From: Planctomycetota bacterium
Lineage (GTDB): Bacteria > Planctomycetota > Planctomycetia > Pirellulales > UBA7805
DNA length: 58,564 nt
Assembly (NCBI GenBank): GCA_036146215.1
Contig: JAYYJN010000130.1
Location: forward strand, 1-58,564
Reading direction: 5' to 3'
Below the pieces are notes generated by a model. It was not told the origin of the DNA. It did not search any database and saw nothing but the letters and a program-made list of their open reading frames with translations. Positions 5,363 to 58,564 of the stretch are shown here, piece after piece. The position numbers and the translations under genes were made by a program. The first letter of the stretch is position 1. The number at the start of each line of letters is the position of its first letter.

Positions 5363-6418
5363 TCAACGCCCTTGAGAATTAGTCTCGCCACCTGGAACCG
5401 TACGGCGTGCGGTGGCTTCTGCTGGCATCTCGACAATTTTTTGCCATCCGAAGGGCACGCTCGGTGGAGCAAACAGTCGTTTGATACCTTCAAAGGGATC
5501 ATTAATGACAACATTGGAAAACTCGTAAGTCGCATAGGTGTCGCCCGGATCATACACCCGCAAGGCGATCGGTTCGAACGTGTTGCGATCGAGACGTAAA
5601 ATCGCCTCTCGAAAATTTCCGGAGTCCGTTTTTGTGCGCGGCACGGCATCCACCCAGATTTCCTTTTGCGCATATTCTCGAGGGGTAACGATGCAGAGGA
5701 AATATCGCTTTTTCAGGTCTGCTGCTTGAGATCCGAAGAGAAATGGAAGCGGGGTGTTTCGAATCGCCTCTCCTTGCATTTCCTCAGGAATTCGACGTTC
5801 GATAACCCGTTTGTTTTTATGATCGTGCTGCCAGATTGAGGCCCCATCACACACCCAATGCTCGCCATGGATATCTTTTGCGGCCTTATACTCACCCGTT
5901 TTCGTGTCGAGATTCATAACTCGGGTGACGCGAAACGTTCCTTTGTCAGGATTGGCATACTTTAGATCACCGTTATTTACAACAAGTGGAACATCTTTAA
6001 ATTGTGGAAGTTCAAACGCTGGATTGTAATTCCATCGCACAAATTCACAGCGGAAAGTTTTGGTCTCTTTTGTCCGATCCTGCCAGGTTTCTAGCACCTT
6101 CGCCAGGTATTGCTCCTGTTGGGGTGTCAAGTGAAAGCGTCCTGGCAGTTTATCTGAGTTGATCGCTTCAGGTGCATTCCCTGCATTAGCAATCCCATCG
6201 GCGTGACGCTCTGTTGCTCCTTGGACATCGCTAGCGCGAGCAGGCGGTTCTGCCGACACCATCATGCAGTTGAAGTTAAGAGTGATCAGTGCGATTCCCG
6301 TAGCCGTCGCATGCTGAAGGACTTGTGCAAGCAGATTGAATCGTTCAACAAATTGCGTTGCTTGGTGCATGAATTCTTTTCGCGTGATCATTTTGAAGAG
6401 GCTCAGCGGTTTGGTCAC
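5363..6418 (-). CDS. Hypothetical exported protein with LolA-like (lipoprotein-carrier-like) sequence pattern
   Basis: Hydrophobic N-terminal segment (GIALITLNFNCMMVSA). The C-terminal ~220 aa show a LolA/outer-membrane lipoprotein-sorting-like pattern (FRCEF...GDLKYANPDKGTFRV...HWVCDGASIWQHDHKNKRV...PLPFLFG). Family assignment is from memory only. Confidence 0.5.
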   Translation of the reverse strand: MTKPLSLFKMITRKEFMHQATQFVERFNLLAQVLQHATATGIALITLNFNCMMVSAEPPARASDVQGATERHADGIANAGNAPEAINSDKLPGRFHLTPQQEQYLAKVLETWQDRTKETKTFRCEFVRWNYNPAFELPQFKDVPLVVNNGDLKYANPDKGTFRVTRVMNLDTKTGEYKAAKDIHGEHWVCDGASIWQHDHKNKRVIERRIPEEMQGEAIRNTPLPFLFGSQAADLKKRYFLCIVTPREYAQKEIWVDAVPRTKTDSGNFREAILRLDRNTFEPIALRVYDPGDTYATYEFSNVVINDPFEGIKRLFAPPSVPFGWQKIVEMPAEATARRTVPGGETNSQGR

Positions 6419-25700: not shown

Positions 25701-26328
25701 GATTACTGAAGCGTTGTGTCGAGACTGGTTGCAATATCTTGCGCCTGTGCTGGCGGATGCGACGCGGACCGAAGGTCAGTTTTCGATCCGCTTGACCCGC
25801 TCGGTGGTTCCAGTGGAGGCTCCCGAAGCGGCAACACTGGAGGGCACATTAACAATCCATGAGGCACAGATACGTCCAGGGCCTGTGACCGAGCAGATTG
25901 CAACGATCGCTGCTCAGGTGGATGCAATCATCAATCGGCGACCGACCCCAAATGATCCGGTTTTAAAGATTGACCCTCAAGAGGTTCCGTTCCGTATGGT
26001 CGCCGGTCGGATCGAGCACCATCAGTTTGAAATAGAAATCGGCGATGTGGTCGTGCGGACAAGTGGATCAGTTGGACTGGATCAAACGCTCGATTTGGTT
26101 GCCGAAATACCGATCCTTCAGAAATGGGTCGACCGCGATCCAATTCTCCGCGGACTTGCCGGGCAAACGCTTAAACTTCCCATTCGGGGCACAGTCCAAA
26201 ACCCGAAAATAGACCCCAAAGCGATCGGCAAACTCAGCAAACAGATGTTGCAGGGGACCGCGAACGGGTTTCTGAATGATGCGATTGATCGGGGCCTGCA
26301 GAAGGGCTTGCAAGAACTCTTTCGTTAA
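22717..26328 (+). CDS. Large (about 1200 aa) membrane-anchored AsmA/TamB-like protein
   Basis: A single N-terminal TM (LLSVSLTIGLVIVPAALLIGG) is followed by a long, repetitive, beta-rich sequence. The C-terminal VVRTSGSVGLDQTLDLVAEIPI...LKLPIRGTVQNPKIDP resembles AsmA-like C-terminal regions. The start is ambiguous (22717, 22738 or 22768). Confidence 0.5.
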   Translation: MRKAGPAMASIGQNEGVMEHDSGSFLKAQFLRRPLLSVSLTIGLVIVPAALLIGGPSIVSHTSLRQKIVPLVLPKLKGTCSIGAASLGWFSPVVFTDVDLDGPSGGPLMRDGTIGINRTLFGLITQGIAGATITVSGADIHLIVGEHSTNWEKAIEDILAQPAAEDSPPAITAKLETIDVIISTSKKEVGRVSDWTLLARYSPEDTLPLTVETSAAIAVADRDDSPGQISAVLRFSPAKSEAESPLGELTWETSGIQLKALGPLLARVLPESTIEGRITSIATIDWQRDIARVEVKLLGSDATFRSPTVLSGETLNLQRGNLELRATAEGNAFQVETFRFDSDFAEFELTAVGRNLLRAVAVAEENGNLLFENVEARGKLDLPRLTNQLPGVFRLRKNTKIDSGQVQFSMQLDALESGRKWNADIKASELAATANGRPLRWEQPIAIQLQLRESLAGNWQGDVSCASDYLIVKAKGSTQAGTVALTADLTQLKEDLEPLLDFGGLEIAGRMQASIDLAQGDRNQLDLNGQGILEGFRLAVPDGVHFEDPRMTLRLSARATVANQQIAGVEQAELRFDSSGDQASVQLTDPIMMNDLPAAFPLEIRGSGQLASWFKRVPLKKQSMTSLPEGRFDAEMRGRFSTTDLSFEHAQVKVQHLKIPLKTGNIEQPSLVLTGSGRWDRINGQLSDVALAARAPAVAVWTEKLNVTFPAALTPASLTPQSNTQPLPEATGTLYVRGDLAVLQPWISAQDAVSRFSLAGKAEGKFALQTENHQIAFEPELAIRDFSIQPASDRETLADIRAKESQVRPTSLEPIWEDQQLTLRGRLIYDYAQDRLQMERVTTGSRGMGVQDLAGSIEQLTGRPIANLQGDLVYDLAQATEMLSPHLDAELAIVGKGSRPIYYRGPLLFNSTDSTEIWWEGIEAGGGFSWDFFQFFGLRGGKGAFRAELNEGIIRGTRIDIPFGGGQLQMVPFVRFDSGPAVLLLSQDTILSRAMITEALCRDWLQYLAPVLADATRTEGQFSIRLTRSVVPVEAPEAATLEGTLTIHEAQIRPGPVTEQIATIAAQVDAIINRRPTPNDPVLKIDPQEVPFRMVAGRIEHHQFEIEIGDVVVRTSGSVGLDQTLDLVAEIPILQKWVDRDPILRGLAGQTLKLPIRGTVQNPKIDPKAIGKLSKQMLQGTANGFLNDAIDRGLQKGLQELFR

Positions 26329-37210: not shown

Positions 37211-39769
37211 ATGTCGGCTGCCACCAAACTCCAAAACGCATCCCATCGCCGGTCCGGTGCCCAAAGGGTTCTGGCTGCACTTGCGTTGTTGCTGGCGTTT
37301 TCAGGTTGCCGTAGTTTTTATGACCAATCGACCCCTCCTCCGCCTGCGGTAGGTGGTCCCGGTGCGGTGAGTATTCCGTCGGTGGATGGAATCGCACCGA
37401 TTGCTCCGCCTCCTCCTCCGCCAGGCCCGGGCGCGGTGCCCCCTTCGACTCCACCAGACCCCCCACGATTCGGGTTGTTTGACTCCTTCGGTCGTGGTGG
37501 TGTGGCAGACGCTCGGCTGACGCTTTCTCCGCAATCCATTGTTGCGCCCGTCGGAAGCGAAGTCGTGTTGATTGGTGGCATTACCAACAATCAAGGCAAG
37601 GGTGCGGTGAGTGAGCGCATTGATTGGATGCTTTCACCAGAGAGTGTGGGCGAGTTTATGACAGTTGATAAGAGCCCGAGCTGTTTACTCTTGAGATTTC
37701 CTTCCAATCGTCCACGCAAGGTTACCAACAATTATGCCATCAGCAGCACCACGACCGCTCGCAAGGCCATCAACCGTGGGACCGCCACACCTCAGGACAA
37801 CGTTGTGATAGAAAGGGGACAAACCTGGGTGACTGTCAGTTCTCCAACCGACGGTGTGAGTTATGTGACCGCATTTGCCCCGAATGTTCCAGCGTGGGAA
37901 TTAAGAAAACAGAATGCCACAATTTATTGGGTAGATGCCCAGTTTTCCTTCCCGGCCCCCGCCATCGCTCCGATTGGAGAACGTCATACTTTTACCACGG
38001 TTGTGACGCGACTCAGCGATGGATCACCATTAGAGGGCTACGTGGTTCGTTATCGTTCGACCGATGGCAATGCGGTGTTCGCGCCCGCCGGAAATCCAAT
38101 GGTTGAAATGCTGACTGACGCCGAAGGAAGAGCATCCGCCGAAATCTATCAACCGAATCCAGGTCGTGGGAACACCCAAATTCAGATGGAAGTGATTCGT
38201 CCAGCTGGCAGGAATAATGCGGCTGATCGTCGCTTGGAGGTGGGTCGGGGTGCGACTTCAATGACATGGACCGCACCTGGCGTTTCGCTTGATGTGACCG
38301 GCCCACCCAGTAGTTCAGTCGGTTCGCAGGCAAGTTTTCAGGTCGTCGTTACCAATAACGGGGATATGCCACTGCAGGATGTCACGGTTTCGCATCGCGT
38401 CCCTGCACCCCTTGAGTTTGTAAACAGCAGCGTGCAGGCGACGCGCGATAGGGACAACTTGAAATGGAATATCGGCCAATTGGCGGCAGGTCAAACAGAG
38501 ACGATTATCATTGATTACAAAGTTCTCAGCTCGGGAAGTGCCCGGAATTGTTTTTCCGTAACCAGTGCGGAGCAAGTGCAGGATCAGGCTTGTATTGATC
38601 TGAATACCACCGAACCGCAACTGGAACTCAACGTTTCTGGACCGACCACAGCCATGGTGGGCCAGAGTGTCACATACCAGATTTCGATTACTAATCGGAG
38701 TCGAAGTCCGCTTTCTGGATTGATTGTCAAAAATACGTTTGACGACGGCTTGAAGCATGCAGTTGCCGCAAGTCCGATTGAGCGAGACTTGGGAACACTC
38801 GGACCAGGACAAACCCTAGATGACATCAGCGTAACTTTCCAAGCAACGCGGCCAGGGAAACTTTGCCAAACGGTCGAAGTGCTGAGTCTCGGGGCCACTG
38901 CATCGAAACAATCAATCTGTCTCACGGTCGATCAGCAGAAGCTTCAACCCGCCATGAAAATTGAAAAACGGGGACCGACTACTGCGAAAGTCGGTGAGAC
39001 TATTATCTTTGAAAGCCTAATTACAAATACGGGAAATGCGCCGCTCGAGAACGTGACAGTGATCGACACTTTCGAGCGCGGTTTGGAGCCGACTCGAGTT
39101 TCGGATGGTTATCAAATTGAAGAAGATCAATTGACGTGGAAGTTTAACCAGATTGCACCGGGACAAACAGAACGCCTGCAAGTAGAGGTGCAATGCAAAG
39201 AGGCGGTGCGTGCCTGCAGTCGTTTGACGGGCACGGCCGTTGGGGATCTGGTGATGGCGGATGAGGCGTGTGTGCAAATCATTCAGGCTACTGCTGCCCC
39301 TCCTGTGACCGGACCTCCCGTAACCGGCGGACCAACCGAACCCGGGACCGCGCCGCTTGCGCCGTCTGGTTCGGCTGAAAATGCTGAAGTGGGGGACGTG
39401 CTGTCATTGCGAGTCACCGACCTCAGAGATGAGGTCCCGATCGGGGGCACCGTCGTATACGAGGTCACGGTCACAAATCTTCAGAATGTTCCCGACGCAA
39501 ACGTTGTAGTCATCGTCACAGTGCCCGAGGGTTTAGCGCCCACATCGGGTGGAGTGGGAATTGTCGCTCCGAGCAATCCGAACATCGGTCAACGTGTCAT
39601 TCGCTTTAATCCGGTTGCGGAAATCCGCCCTGGTGAATCACTGATCTATCGTATTCCTATCCAAGCTGAGCAAGCGGGTCAGTTCCGATCTCAGATCCGA
39701 GTCACGAGCGATGGACAGCGACGGCCATTGATAAAAACCGAAGATTCGAGTGTTTTTCAGGATCGATAA
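37211..39769 (+). CDS. DUF11-repeat (OmcB-like conserved repeat domain) envelope protein, probable lipoprotein, with Pro-rich N-terminal spacer
   Basis: Lipobox-like LALLLAFSGC, then a PPPP-rich stretch. At least five repeats follow of the DUF11 pattern (VG..v.Y.i.vtN.g..pl..v.V.d....GL......). Most end in a Cys...Cys pair (NCFSV...QACIDL; KLCQTVEV...SICLTV; RACSRL...EACVQI). Confidence 0.7.
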   Translation: MSAATKLQNASHRRSGAQRVLAALALLLAFSGCRSFYDQSTPPPPAVGGPGAVSIPSVDGIAPIAPPPPPPGPGAVPPSTPPDPPRFGLFDSFGRGGVADARLTLSPQSIVAPVGSEVVLIGGITNNQGKGAVSERIDWMLSPESVGEFMTVDKSPSCLLLRFPSNRPRKVTNNYAISSTTTARKAINRGTATPQDNVVIERGQTWVTVSSPTDGVSYVTAFAPNVPAWELRKQNATIYWVDAQFSFPAPAIAPIGERHTFTTVVTRLSDGSPLEGYVVRYRSTDGNAVFAPAGNPMVEMLTDAEGRASAEIYQPNPGRGNTQIQMEVIRPAGRNNAADRRLEVGRGATSMTWTAPGVSLDVTGPPSSSVGSQASFQVVVTNNGDMPLQDVTVSHRVPAPLEFVNSSVQATRDRDNLKWNIGQLAAGQTETIIIDYKVLSSGSARNCFSVTSAEQVQDQACIDLNTTEPQLELNVSGPTTAMVGQSVTYQISITNRSRSPLSGLIVKNTFDDGLKHAVAASPIERDLGTLGPGQTLDDISVTFQATRPGKLCQTVEVLSLGATASKQSICLTVDQQKLQPAMKIEKRGPTTAKVGETIIFESLITNTGNAPLENVTVIDTFERGLEPTRVSDGYQIEEDQLTWKFNQIAPGQTERLQVEVQCKEAVRACSRLTGTAVGDLVMADEACVQIIQATAAPPVTGPPVTGGPTEPGTAPLAPSGSAENAEVGDVLSLRVTDLRDEVPIGGTVVYEVTVTNLQNVPDANVVVIVTVPEGLAPTSGGVGIVAPSNPNIGQRVIRFNPVAEIRPGESLIYRIPIQAEQAGQFRSQIRVTSDGQRRPLIKTEDSSVFQDR

Positions 39770-49269: not shown

Positions 49270-51360
49270 ATGAAACGTTGGATAATTCGGTTATCGATCT
49301 TGGGTGGCAGCATGGTTTGCGGCTGGTTTGCAATTGCCGAGGTGCAGCGGTCGCAAGAGGACCCGATAATTCGCTCGGTTGCGGCAAATGATGAGGTCCC
49401 TTCTCCGAGTGCATCGACATATCGATCGAATAATGATGTTGGTTTTTCGCAACCATCTCGTCCAGCAGTCATCGATCCGGGCGCCGCGTTTGCGTCTGCA
49501 GCCGATCAAGCATCAAAAGCATCGGGAGCATCGACCAAGGATTCGATTCCCCCAGCAACCAATCCGCCACGTCGCGATGCCTTCGAGCTTGCCCCACCCG
49601 CGGCCGCGGCGGCAGAGGCGACATCCCGCGTCGAGACAAAAGCTACAATAGATCGCTATGCTCAGGCGGCAGTTGGCAACCGTTATCCGAATAGTACACC
49701 AGCGCCCAACGTGCCGGGGTCTTTGCCCGCGGAGATAAAAAATGCAACGCCATTGACGCAACCATCGCCTGGTGCGCCGCGTTATCCGGCGGCGGGTCCC
49801 TCGACCCCTTCGGCGAATGGCCCTGAAAACAGGTATGCATCCCCGCCCCCTCGTGCGACACCGCCTACACCTCCTGTCTCATCGTCCGCGTCTACATCTC
49901 CGAAAAGTTGGGGTAACGTGTCTGCGGCAGTGCCTGCTGCTGCCGCTGGCGCGACGAGCGAAGCGATCGGTCGACCGGGCGGTCGTCATCAAGAAGGCCC
50001 ACAAGGGCCGCAGATGGTTGTCGAAAAGGTGGTGCCTCAAGAGATTCAAGTCGGTAAACCGACCACGTTTGATATCAAAGTAGTCAATCGCGGAAATGTA
50101 ACGGCCTACGATGTGCGAGTGAAAGATGAGATCCCTTATGGCACCCGTCTGCTCAGCACAAAGCCGACAGCGCAGTCGATTCAGGGAGGCGTTATCTGGG
50201 ACCTCGGCCATTTCGAACCCGGGGAGGAAAAATTTGTCGAAGTCCGTCTGATGCCGGAGGCGGAAGGCGAAGTCGGAAGTGTCGCTTCGGTTACATTTGC
50301 CACACGGGCATCTGCTCGAACCCTGGCAACGAGGCCACTCTTGAAGATTGACGCTAGTAGTGCCGGGCAGGTCATGATCGGCGATCAGATTCAAGTAGAT
50401 ATCACAGTTGCTAATCTGGGGAGCGGAATTGCACGAGATGTCGTGCTGTTCGAAACGTTACCGGGAGAGTTGCGTCATCCGGCCGGTGCCGATCTTGAAT
50501 TTGCAGTCGGTGATCTTGCGCCGAAAGAAAGTCGGAAAATTAATTTAGTGATGACCGCGGCCCGGGCCGGAGTCGTTAAAAACGTGCTATCGGCTCGCGG
50601 AGAAGGAAGCCTGTCAGCAGAAACTAATTTCGAGTTTGAGATTATCGCTCCGCAGTTGTCGGTTGCCATTTCAGGACCACGGCGTCGTTATCTGGAGCGG
50701 CAGGCGACTTATACGGTGAAAGTCGCAAATCCCGGAACAGCAGCGGCGCAAGATATCGAGTTGGTTTCGCGGCTACCTCGCGCGATGCAGTTTGTCTCTG
50801 CCAATAACGCGGGCCACTACGATGCCTCAACGCATGCAGTCTACTGGAGTTTGCAGGAACTTCCCGAGGGTGAGCAGGGTCAAGTGCAATTGGTAACCCT
50901 GCCGACTGAGGCGGGTGACCATACGCTCCGAGTTGAAAGCACTGCCCGCGGCGAATTAAGTGACTCCAGCGAGGAGACTGTCAAGGTAGAGGGTCTCTCG
51001 GCACTCTTTTTCGAAGTTGTCGATCTTGAGGATCCGGTGGAGGTGGGTCGCGATACGGCCTACGAAATTCGGGTGCTCAATCAGGGAACCAAAGTGGCGC
51101 GAAACATTATTGTGGCCGCACTCTTGCCGGATGACTTGAAGCCGCTTTCCACCGAAGGGCCGACACAGGGTTCGATTCAGGGAAATCAGGTAGTGTTTCA
51201 ACCGCTGCCACGTCTGGCTCCCAAAGCGGACACTACTTTCACCGTGCGAGCTCAAGGCGTACATCCAGGTGATCAGCGAGTACAGGTTCAAATCCAGAGT
51301 GATGATTTGAAGACTCCGGTGACCAAGGAAGAGAGCACTAAGGTCTATTCCGACCGGTGA
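49270..51360 (+). CDS. DUF11-repeat envelope protein (paralogue of 37211..39769) with N-terminal anchor and long Pro/Ala-rich spacer
   Basis: N-terminal hydrophobic LSILGGSMVCGWFAIA. About 230 aa of P/A/S-rich low complexity. Four DUF11-like repeats follow (VGKPTTFDIKVVNRGNVTAYDVRVKDEIPYGTRL...). The C-terminal domain and terminus (...QIQSDDLKTPVTKEESTKVYSDR) parallel ...RVTSDGQRRPLIKTEDSSVFQDR of the 852-aa protein. Confidence 0.7.
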   Translation: MKRWIIRLSILGGSMVCGWFAIAEVQRSQEDPIIRSVAANDEVPSPSASTYRSNNDVGFSQPSRPAVIDPGAAFASAADQASKASGASTKDSIPPATNPPRRDAFELAPPAAAAAEATSRVETKATIDRYAQAAVGNRYPNSTPAPNVPGSLPAEIKNATPLTQPSPGAPRYPAAGPSTPSANGPENRYASPPPRATPPTPPVSSSASTSPKSWGNVSAAVPAAAAGATSEAIGRPGGRHQEGPQGPQMVVEKVVPQEIQVGKPTTFDIKVVNRGNVTAYDVRVKDEIPYGTRLLSTKPTAQSIQGGVIWDLGHFEPGEEKFVEVRLMPEAEGEVGSVASVTFATRASARTLATRPLLKIDASSAGQVMIGDQIQVDITVANLGSGIARDVVLFETLPGELRHPAGADLEFAVGDLAPKESRKINLVMTAARAGVVKNVLSARGEGSLSAETNFEFEIIAPQLSVAISGPRRRYLERQATYTVKVANPGTAAAQDIELVSRLPRAMQFVSANNAGHYDASTHAVYWSLQELPEGEQGQVQLVTLPTEAGDHTLRVESTARGELSDSSEETVKVEGLSALFFEVVDLEDPVEVGRDTAYEIRVLNQGTKVARNIIVAALLPDDLKPLSTEGPTQGSIQGNQVVFQPLPRLAPKADTTFTVRAQGVHPGDQRVQVQIQSDDLKTPVTKEESTKVYSDR

Positions 51361-51568: not shown

Positions 51569-52705
51569 ATGGCGATAGCCGACAGCAAGGCGGGTACCGA
51601 AGCGGAATCTGCTGGAAAGCAACGAGAAGAAGCACAGCAATCAGTCGTTTGTTCCTACAACGAGTGGGATCCGCTGGAGGAGGTGATTGTTGGCCGCGTC
51701 GATGGCGGAGCAGTGCCTCCCTGGCATGTCACCCTCCAGGCAGCTACCCCGCAAGAGTCATGGGAACTTCTCAAATTGCTCTCCGGGAAACCGGCCCCCG
51801 ATGCCATGGTGCAGGCCGCCCAACGCGATCAGGCTGAGTTCGTTGCAATTTTAGAAGCAGAGGGAATAAAAGTCAGAAGGCCCGATCCGATCCCTCAAAC
51901 CGAAAGCTTTCGGAGTCCCGACTGGGAGGTAGAGTCCGCATACAATATTGCCAACCCACGCGATGGCCTGCTCGTGATCGGTGACGAAATTATCGAAACG
52001 CCGATGGCATGGCGCAGTCGCTATTTCGAAATGAATGCATATCGAAGTCTGCTTCAAGAATATTTTAAGGCCGGTGCGCGGTGGACGGCCGCACCTCGTC
52101 CTCGTCTGGCAGATTCACTCTATAACGAGGAATGGAAATTGCCGGAACAAGGAGATCCACTTCAATTTGCGATCAATGAAACGGAGTGTTGTTTTGATGC
52201 AGCCGACTTTGCCCGCTGCGGTCGCGATCTCTTCGTGACACGGAGCAACGTGACTAATTATTTTGGAATTGATTGGCTGCGTCGCCATCTCGGCAGTGAG
52301 TTTTCGATTCATGAAATCAAAACAAAGTCACGGCAGCCCATGCACATTGATACGACGTTTGTTCCGCTCTGTCCGGGTCGGGCGCTCTATAGCCCGGACT
52401 TCTTTGATCCCAGTGATGCCCCGGAAGTGCTGAAGAGTTGGGAACTACTGCCGGCACCGGCACCAGTCAGCACGATGGTGCAAATGATCGATCTGAGCAG
52501 TGCATGGCTGAGCATGAACGTTTTGATGCTTGATGAGAAGCGGGTGATTTGCGAGGCAAGTCAGGAACCGCTCATTGAGAAATTCCGTGAATGGGGCTTC
52601 GAACCAATTCCCTGCCCTTACACGAATCATTACGTGTATGGCGGTGCGTTTCACTGCTCCACACTCGATATCCGCAGGCGAGGTTCATTGCAATCGTATT
52701 TCTAG
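51569..52705 (+). CDS. L-arginine:glycine amidinotransferase-type (AGAT/GATM, StrB1/CyrA family) amidinotransferase
   Basis: SYNEWDPLEEVIVGRVDG, PMAWRSRYFEMNAYRSLLQEYFKAGARWTAAPRP, CFDAADFARCGRDLFVTRSNVTNYFGIDWLRRHLG, PMHIDTTF, WLSMNVLMLDEKRVI, and GGAFHCSTLDIRRRGSLQSYF (catalytic Cys). These are collinear with vertebrate GATM as I recall it. ATG at 51569. Confidence 0.9.
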   Translation: MAIADSKAGTEAESAGKQREEAQQSVVCSYNEWDPLEEVIVGRVDGGAVPPWHVTLQAATPQESWELLKLLSGKPAPDAMVQAAQRDQAEFVAILEAEGIKVRRPDPIPQTESFRSPDWEVESAYNIANPRDGLLVIGDEIIETPMAWRSRYFEMNAYRSLLQEYFKAGARWTAAPRPRLADSLYNEEWKLPEQGDPLQFAINETECCFDAADFARCGRDLFVTRSNVTNYFGIDWLRRHLGSEFSIHEIKTKSRQPMHIDTTFVPLCPGRALYSPDFFDPSDAPEVLKSWELLPAPAPVSTMVQMIDLSSAWLSMNVLMLDEKRVICEASQEPLIEKFREWGFEPIPCPYTNHYVYGGAFHCSTLDIRRRGSLQSYF

Positions 52706-52789
52706 AGTGCAGTGCAGTCCGCGTATGACGCCCATGCTGTAGTTGGTGTAAACCTTCGACACGGTCCGGAATGGTTGCGTGGCACGCGG

Positions 52790-55396
52790 TCAAATCACTT
52801 CCGTCGATTTGCTTTTTGCTTGAAAAAGCTTGCCCGCCGGACTGGCCAAAAGTGAAGGTAGAAAAATAAGATCGCCCACCAGTGCGGCTAGCAATAGAAG
52901 AAACATCAACAAGCCAAACTGGGCGACCGGCTGAAAAGAACTCAGCGAAAAGACGACCAAACCGAGGCCTGCAATCAAGGTGGTTTGCGTCATCGCCAAG
53001 GCGCACCGTCGGTAACTGTAAAGCACCGCTTCTTCGCGACTCATTTCCGCAGCAATTCCGCGACGAAACCATGTGAGAAAGTGGACCGTATCGTCCACTG
53101 CAATTCCCATTGCGACGCTTGCCGTCATCATCGAGCCGATGTCCACAATTCGATCGGTCCACCCCATCCACCCAAAAATGACAGCCGCAGGAAAAACATT
53201 CGGCAGCATCGACACTAATCCCGAAGCGAAGTTTCGGAACCAGACAACCATCATCACAGCAATCAGTAAAAACGCAATTACAAAGCTCTCAAAAAGTCCG
53301 TTCAGTAATTCACGCTGCGCAATATGAAACAGAGGTACCAGTCCCGTATATTCCACATCGACCCCGACAGCATCATCCGCCACAGCCCGCATGATATTAT
53401 CAAATTTTTTTGTCTGGTTGGTTAGCATTACGTCATATTTTTGCTTCACTTTCTCCAAGCATTCTTCCGCGTTCGCGGTGTCTTTGCAGGCTGCGCTCTC
53501 TTCAGCAACTTTTTGCTTCACAAGTTCTTTTAATTTTTTTAATTGCAGTTTTGCCTTCTTTTGTTTTCTCTGACTTTCAGCACTGCGCCTTGCCAGGAAG
53601 CTATCTACGTGCTCTTCGATTTGTAGAATGACTTGGTCATAGTCTTTCTCGCCCGGTCGAATTCGCGCGCTGATTCGCCAGAGGTCTTCCCCAGTTTGCG
53701 GCTCCTCCTCGGTTCCTTCCTTCGCGCTGCCCGTTACACGCGGGACCGGTGCAACTTCCTTCGCTGCGTTTTCATAGCTGTAATAATGGACGTTGTGATA
53801 ATCGGAGCGATTGGCTGCCAGGCGTTTATTCATCACGAACTGCGTGTAATGCCCCTCATCGAGTTCCGGCGCGAACGTGGCGGCCGAAATCGAATGGCTG
53901 ATCAGATCGGATTGATTTTGCTTGAGGTCTTTCTCGATTGCCGATATCAACCGCATCTGACCCAGTGTGGTTAACTTTGACTTTTCGCGGTTGAATGCGA
54001 CCACAATTTCCAGGGGTATCTGGTTGCCGAATCGCTCAGGGGTGGAAAGCCATTCATAGTCGGTGATCAGCCGATGCTTCGGGTCAAAAAAACGAGCTGG
54101 CTTGACCGAAGTGTTGATATAAAGGGATCCAAAGCCGAAGAAAATGAGTAGCCCGATACACGCGCAAAGAATCGGCCAACGGTATGTAATAACTTTTGTA
54201 GCCAACCATTCGACGACTCGATTGAATATTCCGTCGAACGCTGCTTTTGATTCTAAATCGCAACCTTCATTTGCTTTTTTCGCAAATTTCTGAATGAGAA
54301 CAAGCAATGCCGGTAAAAGCAGAAACAGCACCGTAAGGCTCGCAATAATTCCGAGTGCAGAAAATTTTCCGAAATCCTTTACGGGAATAATATTGCTCAC
54401 CGAGAGCGAACCGAGACCGATTGCCGTTGTTCCCGCTGCCAGCGTACAGGGCATCCACCCGAGGCGGATGGCTGTTGCAGGCGCGTTGGTTACACCCTTC
54501 TCAGCGACGGTGTCCTGGTAATAGTTGATTAGGTGCACACCAGCGGAGAGACTAAGAACGTAGACCAGAACGGGCATTACAACGAGTACAAGATTCACGC
54601 GACCCCCAAACACTGGCACCAGGGATTGCGCTAGCAGAGCACTATAAACGGCGACAAAGAAAATGAGCATTGCAAGCGTGAAGCTGTACAAAAGCCCTCG
54701 GATCCAATGTTCGGAGCGGCGACCATGAGCGAAGAAAAAACTGGTGACGGCACAGGTAAGTGCAATCAACATGGAATAGCCAACGAGCGAATCAGTGGCC
54801 CTCTGGCTTTCTACATCCACCGCCGCATTGGTGACCGCGTCTCCCGCCATGTGGATCGAATCAGACGGGATTTTTAAATCGTCAACGAGCAGTTCTCTGA
54901 GCGATGCAATTGCCTCTCGGCGATCATTATCCCCGGCTTCAGTTAATTCAATGACCGCCGCGCTTGATTTGCCATCTTTACCGATCAGAATCGATTCCAA
55001 CCGCTCGCGGGCAAGACTCTCGCTCAAATCGAACGGCTTGGCTTGCAACTTTTCCAGCAATTCCGGACCGGTCGTAACTTTTGCAAACAGCTTTTCACCA
55101 GACTCATTTTTATAATTGCGTGCGAGCGATGCGAACTCGGGAAGTCGCGGGTCGGTCAGTGTGCATCCTTTCCAACTTACGATTGCATACTCATCGGTGC
55201 CGAAATGCGCACGAAATTCGGCATAAATTTTTGTTTCATCAAAATTATTTTCTGGGAGCCACTGTTTTATGTTGTTGTTGTTGGTTTCTTCGGATTTGAT
55301 CACGCTCAGTGTGATCGGATAGATCGACACCAGGGATGCAATTAAGATCCAAAGATAAAAGCGATCGTAAAAGGTTGATCGGTTTAATTCCGACAT
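52790..55396 (-). CDS. MMPL/RND-superfamily exporter (HpnN/MmpL-like, two 6-TM bundles) with a charged coiled-coil-like insertion
   Basis: There are two blocks of hydrophobic helices, each preceded by a large soluble loop. A lysine-rich insert (QRKQKKAKLQLKKLKELVKQKVAEE...) lies between them. The C-terminal bundle motif MGIAVDDTVHFL is typical of the RND/SSD family. The ATG at 55396 is preferred over the TTG at 55432. Confidence 0.8.
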   Translation of the reverse strand: MSELNRSTFYDRFYLWILIASLVSIYPITLSVIKSEETNNNNIKQWLPENNFDETKIYAEFRAHFGTDEYAIVSWKGCTLTDPRLPEFASLARNYKNESGEKLFAKVTTGPELLEKLQAKPFDLSESLARERLESILIGKDGKSSAAVIELTEAGDNDRREAIASLRELLVDDLKIPSDSIHMAGDAVTNAAVDVESQRATDSLVGYSMLIALTCAVTSFFFAHGRRSEHWIRGLLYSFTLAMLIFFVAVYSALLAQSLVPVFGGRVNLVLVVMPVLVYVLSLSAGVHLINYYQDTVAEKGVTNAPATAIRLGWMPCTLAAGTTAIGLGSLSVSNIIPVKDFGKFSALGIIASLTVLFLLLPALLVLIQKFAKKANEGCDLESKAAFDGIFNRVVEWLATKVITYRWPILCACIGLLIFFGFGSLYINTSVKPARFFDPKHRLITDYEWLSTPERFGNQIPLEIVVAFNREKSKLTTLGQMRLISAIEKDLKQNQSDLISHSISAATFAPELDEGHYTQFVMNKRLAANRSDYHNVHYYSYENAAKEVAPVPRVTGSAKEGTEEEPQTGEDLWRISARIRPGEKDYDQVILQIEEHVDSFLARRSAESQRKQKKAKLQLKKLKELVKQKVAEESAACKDTANAEECLEKVKQKYDVMLTNQTKKFDNIMRAVADDAVGVDVEYTGLVPLFHIAQRELLNGLFESFVIAFLLIAVMMVVWFRNFASGLVSMLPNVFPAAVIFGWMGWTDRIVDIGSMMTASVAMGIAVDDTVHFLTWFRRGIAAEMSREEAVLYSYRRCALAMTQTTLIAGLGLVVFSLSSFQPVAQFGLLMFLLLLAALVGDLIFLPSLLASPAGKLFQAKSKSTEVI

Positions 55397-55624
55397 GCCA
55401 GATATTCCAGCAAGCTGGGGCCCAAAAGCCAACAGTGACGAGGAATTTTTTAGGGTGGGACAACTCTAAGGATTGCGCAAGAAAAAATTCTTAACGCGAT
55501 CGACTGGGCAGGTTCATTTTGATCGCTCTCCCAGCAGTACGTTATCATACCAACGCAGTCTAATGGTTTGGCAGACTGATATTTCTACTCTTTCCTGCAA
55601 TGGAAACACAGAGCCGGGAGTAAA

Positions 55625-55652
55625 ACGCAGAAACTACGACGATTTTCTGCGT
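55625..55652. other. 9-bp perfect hairpin (ACGCAGAAA-10 nt-TTTCTGCGT) in the divergent intergenic region; on the minus strand it is followed by TTTT
   Basis: Read directly. It lies about 200-230 nt upstream of the MMPL start, so it may be a 5-prime-UTR structure or attenuator. No further support. Confidence 0.3.
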
Positions 55653-55948
55653 GGGTAGACTACGCTGATTATGGCAATTCCTTGGCTCGTAGGAAACGAT
55701 TAACGCATTTAAACTCGATATTTCAGGCCAAAATTGGTTGAAGAGCTGAAAGCGGGGGGGTATGCTAGGGTTCCCGTGCAGAAGGCCCTTTAAGAGGGAT
55801 TTCTGGATCGGATGCAAGGAGCAAAAATGCGAAGGATTGGTGAGACACGCGGGTATGCGTGCTCGGATGCGCGACATGGATCGTGACATTTACCCGCGAT
55901 AGATGAAGACCGAACAAGCACGTATCACCCGGCTCGACCAATCCAAAG

Positions 55949-58564
55949 ATGAAATTCGCCTTCATAGTGCATCCTCTCTCCGAGGAAAGCAAAGCCCTTT
56001 GGCAGATGGATGACGGTGGTCAGTTACTATCCCATTGGGAAAATGGCAATCTCCTAGAAATCTGCGATTTCGTCCAAGGTCGCATGGCTGAAGGAGTCGC
56101 CTTTGGTAGTCGCGCTAAAGATTATCCGATTGTGCTCGATCAATTCGCGGGCTTGCGAACAAAAACCGGTTGTGAGACAGAGGGACGAGTCTACGAAATT
56201 CCGTGCAGTCCGAAGCAGATTCTCGAAGACCCCGCGACAGCTATCGAACAGACCCAGGCGGCCGTGAACATGGCTGCGGACTGGGGTGCGGGCATTGTTG
56301 GTCTCGGCTCACTCACCAGCGTTGTTGGCGGACATGGTCAGTACATTGCTGAGAATAGTCCAATCCCGATCACCACCGGGAACAGCCTCACAGTCTATGC
56401 GGCATTAAAAAATCTGCAGCATGCCTGCAGTGAACTGTCTATTGACCTTACCACCGAGACGGTGACAGTGATCGGTATCCCTGGCAGTATCGCCACGGCG
56501 ATTGCGAGAATGCTTCGAGAGAAAGTGGGAAACATGATCCTCGTTGCGCGTCGCCCTTCCCCGAGAGCGGCTCGTATCGCAGCCGAACTTGACAGCGAAC
56601 TTGTCTTTGATATTCCATCGGCCTTGGCGAATTCGCGGTTAATTCTTTCAGCCACATCGAGTGGTAGTTGCATCGCACAGGAGATGCTTCAGGCAGGCAG
56701 CGTGGTGATTGATGTGGGAGTTCCGGCCGACGTTACCCGTTCGGCGCGTCGTCGCAGCAATGTCCTTGTCGTCTCGGGAGGCCTTGTGGATGTGCCGAAA
56801 AGTTTTCTGGGTAAATCGATGCTATTGGGTTTCCATTTCGGACTCGTGCCAGGCTGTCTTGCTGAGACCATCAATTTGGCACTGGAGGATCGCGGGGAGA
56901 GTTTTTCGCTGGGTCGTGATTTAAGCATTGACCGAATTGAAGAGATTGGATCCATTGCCACGCGGCATGGGTTTTCCTTCTCGCAACTCTCTTCATACGG
57001 TCGACCGGTGCCCGATTCCCTTTGGGCAAGTATGAATAAAGTTGTGCTTTGTCGTTTGTCAGAACAAAATCCCGATGGCGAGGCTCGAAGTCGCGATGGT
57101 GTCGCCGAAGCGAAGGTGAATCAACACGTGAGCGACGGTTACGATGCAGATGCTCATGCCAGAAATGGTTTAAAACGATCAACCGACCACAAATCTGAAA
57201 AGCGGATTAAGCAAGAAGAATCCAAAATCAGAAACCGTCGTGCTCGAACACTTTTTCAGCGATATGTGAACCCCGTATTGGTCAATCTTGCCGAGCAAGG
57301 TGGACTCAACAAAACCTTCGTGCGAGGCGAAGACGCGGTGCTCACTGATGCCGAGGAAAATCACTACCTTGACTTTGTTTCTGGTTTTGGTTCGGTCAAT
57401 CTCGGTCACAATCACCCGAGGGTTGTGCAGGCGGTTCGTGAAGCACTCGACGAAAGTGTTGCTGGATTTTCTCCGGCGGCCATCAATCCATATGCTGCGA
57501 CTTTGTCGGAGCGACTGGTATCGATTGCGCCGGCGGGTCTGGAAATGGTCTTTTTCTGTAACAGCGGCACCGAATCGGTTGAGGCGGCTCTGAAACTTGC
57601 GCGGTCGGCGACCGGACGAACGGGGATTGTCTACTGTCATGGCTCCTATCACGGCAAGTCATTGGGTGCCCTTTCGGTTACCGGGAATCGTGGTTATCAG
57701 CGACCGTTTGCACCGCTGGTTCCGGATTGTCATCCGATTCCGTATGGCAACCTTGAGGTCCTCGAGAGAATCCTCGCGTCGCAGAATATGGCAGCGTTCA
57801 TCGTGGAACCGATCCAGGGAGAGGGGGGGATGATTCTTCCCCCGGCCGGTTATCTTGCGGAGGCAGAGCGTCTCTGTAGACAGGCGGGAACGCTAATGAT
57901 TGCCGATGAAGTCCAAACGGGAATGGGCCGCACAGGAACTATGTTTGCTAGTGAGCAAGCGGCGATTGAGCCGGATATTCTGTGCGTCGCCAAGAGCCTC
58001 AGTGGTGGGCTGGTGCCGATCGGTGCCATGCTGGCTCGTCGTGACCTCTGGATGAAGTCGTATGGCACTGTCGATCGATTTGCCTTGCACACCAGCACGT
58101 TTGGCGGGGGAAGTCTTGCCTGTGTTGCGGGCCTGGCGACAATTGAAACGCTCGTCGAGGAACGACTGGCCGAAAATGCAGCCCAAAGGGGTTTTCAAAT
58201 TCTGGAGGGCTTGAATGAGATTCGTCAGGAGTTACCAGATTATTTTCAGGATATTCGCGGACAGGGATTGATGATTGGTGTGGAACTCTCACCTCTGGCG
58301 GAATCGGTGATTACACATCTGAAGCGAACGGATTCGACGGGCATGCTGCAATATATGATGCAGGGAATGGATGCGATGATTGCCAGTTTCCCCACGGTTT
58401 TTCAAATGCAGATATTGCTTGAGCATTACCATATCTATACTCAAGTTGCACGTTCCAATCCTTTGGTATTGCGTATCCAACCGCCGCTCACGATCGATGC
58501 AGGTAAAGCGGCACATTTTATTACCTCCTTTTCCCGAACGTGTCGCCTTGGGCATAAAGTGGAA
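55949..58564 (+). CDS. Fusion protein: N-terminal acyl-ACP-reductase-like (AAR/HemA-type NAD(P)H thioester reductase) domain + charged linker + class-III (omega) aminotransferase; 872 codons, open at the right edge
   Basis: Absent from the ORF track. I translated it by hand: ATG at 55949, in-frame stop upstream at 55904, no stop to 58564, and the length is an exact multiple of 3. N domain: MKFAFIVHPLS..., GLGSLTSVVGG, TTGNSLTVYAA, VTVIGIPGSIATAIARML (Rossmann), and VPGCLAETINLALE (Cys303, codon 56855-56857), which aligns with the catalytic Cys region of cyanobacterial AAR. Aminotransferase domain: DFVSGFGSVNLGHNHP, FFCNSGTESVEAALKLAR, EPIQGEGG, IADEVQTGMGRTG, CVAKSLSGG (PLP Lys682, 57992-57994), HTSTFGG. 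Confidence 0.8.
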   Translation, partial: MKFAFIVHPLSEESKALWQMDDGGQLLSHWENGNLLEICDFVQGRMAEGVAFGSRAKDYPIVLDQFAGLRTKTGCETEGRVYEIPCSPKQILEDPATAIEQTQAAVNMAADWGAGIVGLGSLTSVVGGHGQYIAENSPIPITTGNSLTVYAALKNLQHACSELSIDLTTETVTVIGIPGSIATAIARMLREKVGNMILVARRPSPRAARIAAELDSELVFDIPSALANSRLILSATSSGSCIAQEMLQAGSVVIDVGVPADVTRSARRRSNVLVVSGGLVDVPKSFLGKSMLLGFHFGLVPGCLAETINLALEDRGESFSLGRDLSIDRIEEIGSIATRHGFSFSQLSSYGRPVPDSLWASMNKVVLCRLSEQNPDGEARSRDGVAEAKVNQHVSDGYDADAHARNGLKRSTDHKSEKRIKQEESKIRNRRARTLFQRYVNPVLVNLAEQGGLNKTFVRGEDAVLTDAEENHYLDFVSGFGSVNLGHNHPRVVQAVREALDESVAGFSPAAINPYAATLSERLVSIAPAGLEMVFFCNSGTESVEAALKLARSATGRTGIVYCHGSYHGKSLGALSVTGNRGYQRPFAPLVPDCHPIPYGNLEVLERILASQNMAAFIVEPIQGEGGMILPPAGYLAEAERLCRQAGTLMIADEVQTGMGRTGTMFASEQAAIEPDILCVAKSLSGGLVPIGAMLARRDLWMKSYGTVDRFALHTSTFGGGSLACVAGLATIETLVEERLAENAAQRGFQILEGLNEIRQELPDYFQDIRGQGLMIGVELSPLAESVITHLKRTDSTGMLQYMMQGMDAMIASFPTVFQMQILLEHYHIYTQVARSNPLVLRIQPPLTIDAGKAAHFITSFSRTCRLGHKVE

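Follow-up and report, generated by a model that had tools for sequence, protein, structure and literature searches.

A tentative amine/guanidine biosynthesis and export locus in a marine planctomycete, combining an amidinotransferase, an MMPL/HAE3 transporter and a PigE-type fusion enzyme

Described systems and the gene content of the locus

In streptidine formation a transamination catalyzed by StsC is followed by an amidination catalyzed by StrB1. StrB1 belongs with SxtG, AGAT, CyrA and HsvA to a group of amidinotransferases with a common fold and a common Cys-His-Asp amidino-transfer machinery, whose known roles are in saxitoxin (SxtG), guanidinoacetate (AGAT and CyrA), polyamine (HsvA) and streptomycin (StrB1) metabolism; SxtG, HsvA and StrB1 amidinate primary amines that are not amino acids. 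In saxitoxin biosynthesis the amine newly introduced by SxtA is amidinated by SxtG, which tolerates diverse primary amines as acceptors, and a guanidinoacetate starter unit is supplied by CyrA-type enzymes (PMC12371840). Enzymes that generate amines from acyl thioesters have also been described. PigE, from the prodigiosin MAP branch of Serratia, is reported as a bifunctional thioester reductase/transaminase, with ornithine or arginine as the proposed amino donor (PMC8341465), while TamH/TamA of the tambjamine YP1 pathway and related fusions turn activated fatty acids, by way of the aldehyde, into fatty amines in one polypeptide (PMC9594044, PMC10829540). Finally, in mycobacterial MmpL and PapA-type lipid assembly and export, and in HpnN (HAE3) systems, the transporter gene adjoins the genes for the enzymes of the cargo lipid.

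We analyzed a DNA stretch of 58,564 nucleotides (the window) from a marine planctomycete, whose right end (51569-58564) carries an amidinotransferase (AT), an MMPL/HAE3 transporter and a thioester-reductase/class-III-transaminase fusion. The identities and coordinates that the first-pass annotation had given to the three genes were confirmed by very strong family matches for each (Pfam, NCBIfam, PDB), and the general chemistry it had ascribed to these already known enzyme types was also judged correct. Each enzyme type is known and their combination is not; a literature search found no description of such a pathway, and genome comparison lent the combination moderate support. The overall reading, in which an acyl thioester would be converted to an aldehyde and an amine, followed by amidination and MMPL export, is partly supported and is proposed here tentatively.

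The fusion enzyme, the transporter and the amidinotransferase

The fusion gene (55949..58564, plus strand) is cut by the window end, which it reaches as an open reading frame of 872 codons with no stop. A TARA scaffold (L001) with about 99.5% DNA identity over the last 765 bp of the window encodes a fusion of 920 aa, and therefore only 48 codons lie beyond the window. In Pfam, residues 164-273 matched a Shikimate_DH-type NAD(P) domain and residues 457-800 matched Aminotran_3 (320.8 bits). An AAR-like thioester reductase makes up the N-terminal domain, with a GIPGSIA NAD(P) motif and a predicted catalytic Cys303, aligned with Cys296 of PigE and Cys294 of AAR; its proposed AAR/HemA-like nature was borne out by TIGR04058 (91 bits), hemA (35 bits) and the AAR structures 6jzq/6jzu (E 1e-19). 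The C-terminal domain (about residues 435-870, Lys682) is a class-III PLP transaminase, closest in NCBIfam to putrescine, ornithine and acetylornithine aminotransferases. Invariant alignment columns agree with these assignments.

This fusion had been considered an undescribed architecture, but it is of the already known PigE type (PMC8341465), as it matched the PigE structure 4ppm and, over its full length, the NCBIfam PigE model NF053554 with 775.9 bits, below the equivalog cut-off of 850. The domain order, thioester reductase then class-III transaminase, is that of PigE, and the same chemistry, from thioester to aldehyde to amine, is expected (PMC8341465). Unlike PigE, however, the fusion has no pigD, pigB or other prodiginine genes near it and belongs to a planctomycetal family with lipid-type partners, which comprises at least 361 clusters and is widespread in Planctomycetota. 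TamH differs in its reversed domain order, transaminase then reductase, in its dedicated adenylation/ACP partner TamA, which has no counterpart in the window locus, and in its product, which is condensed onto a bipyrrole rather than being amidinated and exported through an MMPL protein. Cyanobacterial AAR is homologous to the N-terminal domain and has the acyl-Cys mechanism and the NADPH motif in common with it, but its aldehyde passes to a deformylating oxygenase to give alkanes, whereas the aldehyde of the fusion would pass to the fused transaminase.

Further partners (ACP, ligase, acyltransferase) had been anticipated downstream of the fusion, but none occurs among the window genes of the locus or the downstream genes of the near-identical scaffold. 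The next genes on that scaffold are unrelated, encoding a convergent C25 peptidase, a degenerate squalene-cyclase-like protein, a PNP_UDP_1 nucleosidase and the housekeeping IspH.

The transporter gene (52790..55396, minus strand) encodes an MMPL/HAE3-type RND-superfamily membrane protein of 868 aa, which matched Pfam MMPL in two stretches (74.6 bits, cut-off 20.5), NCBIfam HAE3 with 107 bits (cut-off 352) and HpnN with only 53 bits (cut-off 752), and which has an insert rich in Lys and Glu at about residues 590-690. It adjoins the gene of a putative cargo enzyme as in the MmpL and HpnN systems, although its similarity to these is only distant and the host here is a planctomycete; a fusion cluster in another lineage (L108) also holds a PapA/WS-DGAT-like acyltransferase, as in mycobacterial MmpL/PapA systems. 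The start at ATG 55396 is also the one called on other contigs, where the protein has 868 aa, and leaves 552 bp (55397..55948) between the divergent MMPL and fusion genes, the previously proposed spacer of 516 bp holding only with a start at TTG 55432. Within this region we found a promoter-like TTGAAG...TATGCT (55735-55765) and a pair of conserved leader boxes, at 55831-55844 and 55874-55896. Both boxes persist, with 0-2 mismatches, even in relatives with a fusion protein of just 72% identity, and distant loci lack them. The region had no match in Rfam and no covariation support.

The AT gene (51569..52705, plus strand) encodes a cytoplasmic SxtG/AGAT-family L-arginine amidinotransferase of 378 aa, found as exactly the same protein on four public contigs. 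PDB searches matched SxtG (E 6.9e-120, 51% identity), human AGAT (8.8e-101, 47%), HsvA (4.1e-98) and StrB1 (1.2e-66). The catalytic residues D132, D210, H259, D261 and C363 correspond to AGAT D170, D254, H303, D305 and C407, and all five were invariant in the alignment (A6). The flap motif R255-Q-P-M-H-I-D carries Q-P-M where SxtG has E-A-L and AGAT has N-P-M, and the acidic pocket of SxtG is partly retained (E58 kept, E59 deleted, E255 replaced by Q and E276 by D). The catalytic pocket motifs did not differ between linked and unlinked planctomycete ATs, and Burkholderia and cyanobacterial homologues carry the same ones; as judged from its sequence, the AT bears no sign of a special lipid acceptor. 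Unlike the SxtG and StrB1 systems, no toxin or aminoglycoside cluster surrounds it. The AT and MMPL gene ends converge on a spacer of 84 bp (52706..52789), in which no convincing terminator was found, and the AT is therefore not co-transcribed with either MMPL or the fusion in the window.

Conservation across genomes

The AT-MMPL-fusion trio is retained in about five related species. However, the close relatives all share a collinear block of more than 20 kb, from SurA to a PVC haem protein and with housekeeping genes included, so that conservation of the trio within this clade says little. Beyond it, conserved synteny, which the first-pass annotation had named as a test, gave a mixed result: MMPL and the fusion were paired in four distant lineages, the AT and the fusion only once. 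In those four (L103, L108, L119 and L143), the fusion is preceded at a distance of 470-690 bp by a divergent gene for an MMPL orthologue (28-47% identity), and the other neighbours of the pair differ. The AT was found in none of 73 other distant fusion loci and was unlinked to the fusion in four distant AT-bearing lineages; homologues with 64-68% identity occur alone or with other partners (L092-L095), and in two further MAG lineages the AT and the fusion are both present, 250-2460 protein accessions apart.

The single AT-fusion pair is operon-like (L176-L178): an AT with 67% identity to that of the window and a fusion with 48% identity to its window counterpart share one strand, the fusion starting 22 nt after the AT. 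The L176 locus has a GC content of 64%, against 52% in the window, and in the fusion tree as well as the AT tree it is placed at a large distance from the window clade. A non-orthologous MMPL gene occurs near its fusion, and the AT-fusion pair is followed by a 2-hydroxyacid dehydrogenase, a FAA-hydrolase family protein and a betaine/aminobutyraldehyde-type ALDH. By a rough estimate, AT and fusion would adjoin by chance with a probability of about 1e-3 per lineage; of the five independent AT lineages examined, one gave a hit.

A FemAB_like GNAT gene adjoins the fusion in 17 of the 35 distant loci with both flanks, and no such gene was found in the 58.5-kb window or within the roughly ±10 kb retrieved around the AT-linked loci. 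Other partners in distant loci were a PapA/WS-DGAT-like acyltransferase, a NAD_binding_4 reductase, an AMP-ligase, FabH and a Lipid_DES/FA desaturase.

The proposed module and its alternatives

The locus may represent a small module for the synthesis and export of a cationic amine or guanidine amphiphile, a proposal we regard as plausible but somewhat short of an even chance. As established for its enzyme type, the fusion would take an acyl thioester onto Cys303, NAD(P)H would reduce the acyl group to the aldehyde, and the fused PLP domain would transaminate the latter to a primary amine. General fatty-acid synthesis would most likely provide the substrate, as a fatty acyl-ACP or acyl-CoA, since no dedicated ACP or ligase lies nearby. 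Gene linkage suggests that the AT would then load the amidino group of arginine on Cys363 and pass it to this amine, yielding an alkylguanidine and ornithine; we infer a fatty amine or alkylguanidine as the product. Ornithine could in turn be the amino donor for the ornithine/putrescine-type transaminase domain, in which case arginine would supply both nitrogen groups. The recurrent pairing of MMPL with the fusion points to a third step, in which the divergent transporter would clear the inner membrane of the membrane-active product and deliver it to the envelope or the medium. Several observations weigh against the proposal: the AT converges with MMPL outside the transcription unit of the fusion, 73 distant fusion loci lack it, its homologues elsewhere are unlinked, its pocket motifs are the same whether linked or not, and the locus holds no ACP, ligase or acyltransferase.

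Rather unlikely, though the most probable of the alternatives, is that the fusion and MMPL alone make and export an amine-bearing lipid and that the AT beside them has no part in this, producing guanidinoacetate or some other guanidino compound that is soluble. The recurrence of the MMPL-fusion pair where the AT is missing, the separate transcription unit of the AT and its occurrence alone or with other partners elsewhere all favour this explanation, as do its more than 5000 homologues in diverse phyla and its Q-P-M-H-I-D flap, which resembles the N-P-M-H-I-D of AGAT and is invariant in many unrelated bacteria. The operon-like pair of L176-L178, in a distant lineage and a different arrangement, argues against it, together with the missing FemAB_like capping enzyme in the window and the AT-linked flanks.

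It is improbable that the AT acts first, giving a guanidino acid (guanidinoacetate, 4-guanidinobutyrate) that after thioester activation would be converted by the fusion to a soluble agmatine-like guanidino-amine and not to a lipid. The guanidinoacetate supplied by CyrA-type enzymes, the gene order of L176, AT then fusion and then soluble-metabolite enzymes, and the nearest relatives of the transaminase domain are consistent with such a route, but neither AT-linked locus holds a ligase or carrier protein for activating a guanidino acid, the partners of the fusion elsewhere are of lipid type, and MMPL transporters handle lipids.

There is also little likelihood that the three genes are functionally unconnected and lie together through a collinear segment in one family of marine Pirellulales-like planctomycetes. 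The shared SurA to PVC haem protein block, the housekeeping or unrelated flanking genes and the mostly different neighbours of distant fusions and ATs would fit; however, the MMPL orthologue recurs divergently with the fusion while all other neighbours change, and the AT-fusion pair of L176 is independent. A hopanoid side-chain module, with MMPL as HpnN and the transaminase domain as HpnO giving an amino-bacteriohopanepolyol for amidination by the AT, was suggested by the cyclase-like, HpnG-like and IspH genes next door, by hopanoid-associated best NCBIfam names and by stand-alone class-III transaminases like the C-terminal domain near SHC and IspH in Methylococcales and Streptomyces loci, but is very improbable and largely refuted by membership tests, as the scores for HpnN (53 against a cut-off of 752 bits), HpnG (47.6 against 187), hopene cyclase (61 against 431) and the HpnJ-like rSAM of L176 (102 against 578) are far too low, no conserved DXDD motif is present in the cyclase-like protein, whose sequence changes very quickly (32-52% identity, against 72-88% for the fusion), the full-length PigE match includes a thioester-reductase domain that HpnO chemistry does not need, and IspH is a genuine MEP-pathway housekeeping gene.

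Returning to the amine/guanidine module, the partners of the fusion in most other planctomycetes are N-capping acyltransferases (FemAB_like/GNAT, PapA/WS-DGAT-like) in place of the AT; amidination thus looks like a lineage-specific alternative way to finish the amine.

The three genes and their products

The three adjacent genes that the first-pass annotation placed at the window's right end (51569-58564) were confirmed by the ORF list and the translations. The window is part of a planctomycete chromosome, where it lies among genes of housekeeping type (IlvC, thymidine kinase, Ffh, MnmA and TyrRS), and it contains YTV repeats, which are typical of planctomycetes. The long ORFs at 22717-26328 (1203 aa), 2861-3997 (378 aa) and 5363-6418 (351 aa) gave no Pfam match at E <= 1e-5. 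Two large DUF11/CLIPPER-repeat proteins, probably surface proteins, are encoded at 37211-39769 and 49270-51360; one of these genes lies directly upstream of the amidinotransferase gene and may share a transcript with it, and at the comparison locus L088 the two are separated by an insertion of two small Gly-zipper genes.

The fusion gene (55949 to the window end, plus strand) runs for 872 codons without a stop and encodes a Shikimate_DH-type NAD(P) domain joined to an Aminotran_3 domain. The NCBIfam PigE model NF053554 covered residues 44-866 of the 872 present in the window with 775.9 bits, a score below the equivalog cut-off of 850, and PigE was also the best PDB match (4ppm, E 9.1e-149), showing that the reductase-transaminase architecture belongs to the known PigE type and is not an undescribed one. 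The N-terminal 400 residues matched the PigE N-domain and the cyanobacterial acyl-ACP reductase (AAR), TIGR04058 gave 91 bits on the reductase domain, and the catalytic Cys303 aligned with AAR Cys294 and with PigE Cys296 (PMC8341465). Both Cys303 and the Gly-rich NAD(P) motif G176-x-P-G-S-I were invariant in 16 homologues. Aminotran_3 scored 320.8 bits over residues 457-800, and the A-K682-S-L motif was likewise invariant in the alignment of the 16 homologues, with Lys682 as the putative PLP lysine; NCBIfam matches placed the transaminase domain in the ornithine/putrescine type.

PigE is reported to be a bifunctional thioester reductase/transaminase whose probable amino donor is ornithine or arginine (PMC8341465), and the thioester to aldehyde to amine chemistry proposed at first reading is sound for this enzyme type. 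Activated fatty acids are turned into amines by related fusions (PMC9594044; PMC10829540). The fusion is very probably a thioester-to-amine enzyme, and it was judged by eye, from the N-terminal sequence, to be cytoplasmic. No prodiginine genes (pigD, pigB and others) occurred in the 58.5 kb window or in about 10 kb downstream. The fusion family is large in Planctomycetota: of the scored candidates, 361 protein clusters reached E <= 1e-20, most of them bearing the names Planctomycetia, Pirellulales or Thermoguttaceae.

When genome contigs were searched with a profile seeded with the full-length fusion alignment, the patterns fell in the transaminase domain and mostly generic class-III aminotransferases were returned, with just five full-length fusions. 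Class-III aminotransferases that stand alone and share about 37-40% identity with the fusion C-domain were observed at the comparison loci L012, L015, L016, L024, L051 and L073, less than 10 kb from squalene-hopene-cyclase-like sequences (Methylococcales-type, Streptomyces) and, in L012, from IspH. These are probably HpnO genes, and the PigE transaminase domain and HpnO thus appear to be fairly close relatives.

The amidinotransferase (51569-52705, plus strand, 378 aa) was identified from the ORF list, its translation and PDB matches; a Pfam-A search of the protein matched no model. Residues 23-378 aligned with the solved amidinotransferases SxtG (E 6.9e-120, 51% identity), human AGAT (8.8e-101, 47% identity), HsvA (4.1e-98) and StrB1 (1.2e-66). 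Alignment mapping placed the catalytic triad at C363/H259/D210 (AGAT C407/H303/D254) and the guanidino-binding aspartates at D132/D261 (AGAT D170/D305), all of which were invariant across the homologue alignment. Flap and pocket residues were compared with a view to the acceptor, glycine or another amine. The flap reads Q256-P-M258, nearer to N300-P-M302 of AGAT than to E-A-L of SxtG, and the position of AGAT R322 is occupied by F278, as in SxtG. The pocket motifs did not differ between fusion-linked and unlinked homologues, nor across phyla; the homologue alignment revealed no signature separating the two groups and the pocket motifs gave no pointer to a lipid acceptor. The N-terminal sequence, judged by eye, suggests a cytoplasmic enzyme. 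The family is very large, with 5194 clusters reaching E <= 1e-30 in the set of scored candidates, and a planctomycete clade within it is 60-70% identical to the window protein.

The third gene (52790-55396, minus strand) encodes an 868-aa transporter of the RND superfamily in which PF03176 (MMPL) was found in two stretches with 74.6 bits against a gathering threshold of 20.5. Its nearest NCBIfam model was HAE3 (TIGR00921, 107.3 bits), under the curated cut-off of 352, as were TIGR03480 (HpnN; 53.4 against 752) and NF052374 (32.9 against 1100). An exact-sequence look-up of the protein with either start codon returned no identical protein. A Lys/Glu-rich, coiled-coil-like insert separates the two MMPL halves (residues ~590-690) and generates spurious AAA_15 and Hydro_N_hd Pfam matches.

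Linkage of the genes in close and distant relatives

The locus was followed past the window edge on the TARA scaffold L001, which carries an identical amidinotransferase and shows ~99.5% DNA identity over the last 765 bp of the window; on it the fusion has a full length of 920 aa. The next genes encode a convergent Peptidase_C25 protein (PorU-like), a squalene-cyclase-repeat protein and a PNP_UDP_1 nucleosidase, with IspH and a PVC-type haem protein further downstream in relatives. The ACP, ligase or acyltransferase that the first-pass annotation thought might lie downstream was absent from the genes found there in L001 and the relatives.

The order amidinotransferase, MMPL, fusion was unchanged in the close relatives L085-L088, L098, L101 and L163, whose fusions are 72-88% identical. 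However, these loci also keep all the other genes from SurA through the haem protein, and since the whole block is collinear, conservation of the trio among them carries no functional information. Comparison of L088 with the window, or with L085 for genes past the window end, returned identities of 81% for the amidinotransferase, 76% for IspH, 72% for the fusion, 60% for MMPL, 46% for the C25 peptidase, 36% for the nucleosidase and 32% for the cyclase-like protein, placing the amidinotransferase and the fusion among the most conserved genes of the block.

Further fusion loci came from a metagenome scan that took the reductase domain as its seed, which gave 80 loci, and from three look-ups; they were analyzed by tblastn and clustering of neighbouring ORFs. 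An orthologous MMPL gene (28-47% identity), divergent and 470-690 bp upstream of the fusion, was found in L103 (= L164), L108 (= L109), L119 (= L118) and L143, that is, in four distant lineages, whose remaining neighbours differ, and at five of the 51 loci whose upstream sequence extends for 1.5 kb or more. The commonest partner was a FemAB_like/Acetyltransf_6 protein of ~400 aa (PF04339/PF13480), directly adjacent to the fusion in 17 of the 35 loci with both flanks; the loci bearing it include L104-L106, L108, L112-L114, L116, L119, L120, L138, L140, L145, L147, L150, L151, L153 and L157, and two of them, L108 and L119, are laid out as FemAB_like, MMPL, divergent fusion. It is sometimes accompanied by MMPL, a PapA/WS-DGAT-like acyltransferase, an AMP-ligase or a Lipid_DES desaturase. 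Other partners of the fusion were a PapA/WS-DGAT-like acyltransferase, an NAD_binding_4 reductase, AMP-ligases (in six loci), FabH together with an AMP-ligase, and a Lipid_DES/FA desaturase. Partners of these kinds speak for an acyl substrate of lipid type and for a functional MMPL-fusion pair, and the window MMPL is likely to be a working partner of the fusion. A literature search on FemAB_like/PF04339 gave nothing useful; the pairing itself hints at a pathway to N-acylated amine lipids that has not been described.

An aldehyde dehydrogenase gene is the next gene after the fusion in L131/L168 (12788-14209) and lies three genes downstream of it in L176 (15553-17025). The two proteins are 39% identical and might scavenge the aldehyde intermediate.

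For the amidinotransferase, evidence was obtained on both sides. At the 73 distant fusion loci (43-55% identity) no amidinotransferase was detected near the fusion by tblastn and ORF clustering, and linkage to the fusion was absent in four distant amidinotransferase lineages. Two of these (L092/93 and L094/95) carry planctomycete amidinotransferases in unrelated contexts; in the other two, both MAG lineages, amidinotransferase and fusion occur in one genome with protein accessions 250-2460 apart. In L092 (10001-12160, amidinotransferase cluster P0126) a spacer of 16 bp leads from the gene to a GFO_IDH_MocA oxidoreductase of inositol-dehydrogenase type and then a GH97 glycosidase, recalling the dehydrogenase/amidinotransferase logic of aminocyclitol pathways, which suggests that the enzyme has been drawn into different pathways in different lineages.

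On the other side, L176-L178, three samples of one distant lineage, carry an amidinotransferase 67% identical to that of the window and, 22 nt after it on the same strand, a PigE-type fusion (48% identical to the window fusion; 785.8 bits with NF053554, cut-off 850), with a divergent MMPL-family gene, non-orthologous to the window MMPL, two genes upstream. The locus has a GC content of 64% against 52% in the window. The L176 fusion forms a separate long branch in the fusion tree, its nearest relatives being only 59-60% identical and one of them, L135, having no amidinotransferase nearby, while the L176 amidinotransferase falls outside the window-clade subclade, interleaved with unlinked enzymes. 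These positions and the layout suggest that the adjacency is present in two well-separated lineages with different arrangements. Two given genes would be adjacent by chance in ~1e-3 of lineages (a rough estimate), and with the window clade left out of the count, one linked case in five independently examined amidinotransferase lineages makes chance unlikely, though it is still a single verified replicate.

Neither the 58.5-kb window nor the flanks fetched for the two amidinotransferase-linked lineages (~±10 kb) yielded a FemAB_like gene, which fits amidination and N-acylation as alternative caps for the same amine. Co-localisation was also approached through equal longest-contig sizes in the amidinotransferase and fusion match lists, and two exact coincidences of protein clusters (P0148/P0017, 10,280 bp; P0221/P0109, 7,067 bp) against ~0.24 expected hint at further linked pairs, although the close relatives of P0109 are without an amidinotransferase. 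A third coincidence (P0325/P0180, 4,648 bp), from different sources, is probably due to chance. The conserved synteny that the first-pass annotation had proposed as a check was thus mixed beyond the close, collinear relatives: MMPL and fusion were paired in four distant lineages and amidinotransferase and fusion in L176, and at the other distant loci and lineages examined the amidinotransferase was absent or unlinked. On balance, we slightly favour an amidinotransferase active in the same pathway as the fusion.

Downstream genes and intergenic regions

The downstream SQHop_cyclase, PNP_UDP_1 and LytB matches raised the idea of a hopanoid cluster, which was rejected because all hopanoid model scores were far under their cut-offs (TIGR01507, hopene cyclase, 61 bits against 431; HpnG 47.6 against 187), the cyclase-like protein is fast-evolving and lacks a conserved DXDD, and IspH is a housekeeping enzyme. 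The squalene-cyclase-repeat protein (L001 9132-11021; L085 14702-16546; L087 14473-16428; L088 14780-16699) shows a DVDL remnant of DXDD in one genome that is not kept among orthologues, shares 32-52% identity across genomes in which the fusion shares 72-88%, and is probably not a cyclase.

In the window the amidinotransferase gene is convergent with the MMPL gene and separately transcribed. The 5' region of the fusion (window 55735-55948; also L085, L087, L088, L098 and L101), part of the 552-bp stretch between the MMPL and fusion genes, contains blocks far better conserved than the surrounding coding regions: a promoter-like pair TTGAAG...GGGGGTATGCT at about -214/-194 and, at -75, the 23-nt box CATGGATCGTGRCATTTWCCCGC, mismatched at 0-1 positions in genomes with a fusion protein of only 72% identity. 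The blocks, absent from the distant loci, could represent an operator or a leader element; no covariation was detected in the conserved leader. A guanidine or other riboswitch was discarded, as the intergenic regions gave no Rfam match at the gathering threshold or at E <= 1, and no known RNA element tying the genes together was found there. Simple promoter and terminator scans returned counts no higher than in shuffled sequence.

A candidate route from acyl thioesters to guanidines

According to the proposed scheme, an acyl-ACP or acyl-CoA would form an acyl-Cys303 intermediate on the fusion, to be reduced by NAD(P)H to the aldehyde and converted by PLP-dependent transamination into the primary amine; the amidino group of arginine would then be transferred via Cys363 of the amidinotransferase, yielding an alkylguanidine and ornithine, and the product would be exported by MMPL. 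Given the ornithine/putrescine-type transaminase domain and the donor proposed for PigE, ornithine or arginine, the ornithine released by the amidinotransferase could itself serve as amino donor. Transamination followed by amidination is also the order of steps in streptidine biosynthesis (StsC, then StrB1). The saxitoxin sequence, in which the amine introduced by SxtA is amidinated by SxtG (PMC12371840), is related to the logic proposed here.

The enzyme types are all known and it is their combination that would be new; a planctomycetal pathway of this kind was not described in the literature searched, which is absence of evidence only. The observation of the three genes was thus confirmed, while the interpretation given to them by the first-pass annotation is partly supported. 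The full three-step reading, from acyl thioester to amine to guanidine with export by MMPL, is a tentative one, falling a little short of an even chance. Rather unlikely, and offered as speculation, is its more specific form, in which some marine planctomycetes would make long-chain alkylguanidines from fatty acyl-ACP through the fusion and the SxtG-like amidinotransferase, with arginine as the source of the amidino group and also, via ornithine, of the amino group, and with dedicated MMPL export, as one branch of a wider undescribed amine-lipid family in which FemAB_like GNATs and PapA/WS-DGAT-like acyltransferases provide alternative N-capping. Such long-chain alkylguanidines would be natural analogues of dodecylguanidine, a synthetic biocide.

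Should the amidinotransferase prove unrelated, what remains is a new PigE-like family member beside its own exporter. If the three genes cooperate, they would define a new way of making guanidino (cationic) lipids or alkylguanidines and a new use of arginine as double nitrogen donor. Guanidino lipids and alkylguanidines are strongly membrane-active, and the products could act against microbes or modify the envelope in marine Planctomycetota, where little is known of envelope lipids and natural products. The at least 361 clusters of planctomycetal PigE-like fusions, with MMPL, FemAB_like GNAT, PapA/WS-DGAT-like and AMP-ligase proteins as recurrent partners, offer a lead to amine-derived lipids of a class not recognised so far, and a source of one-enzyme acid-to-amine biocatalysts.
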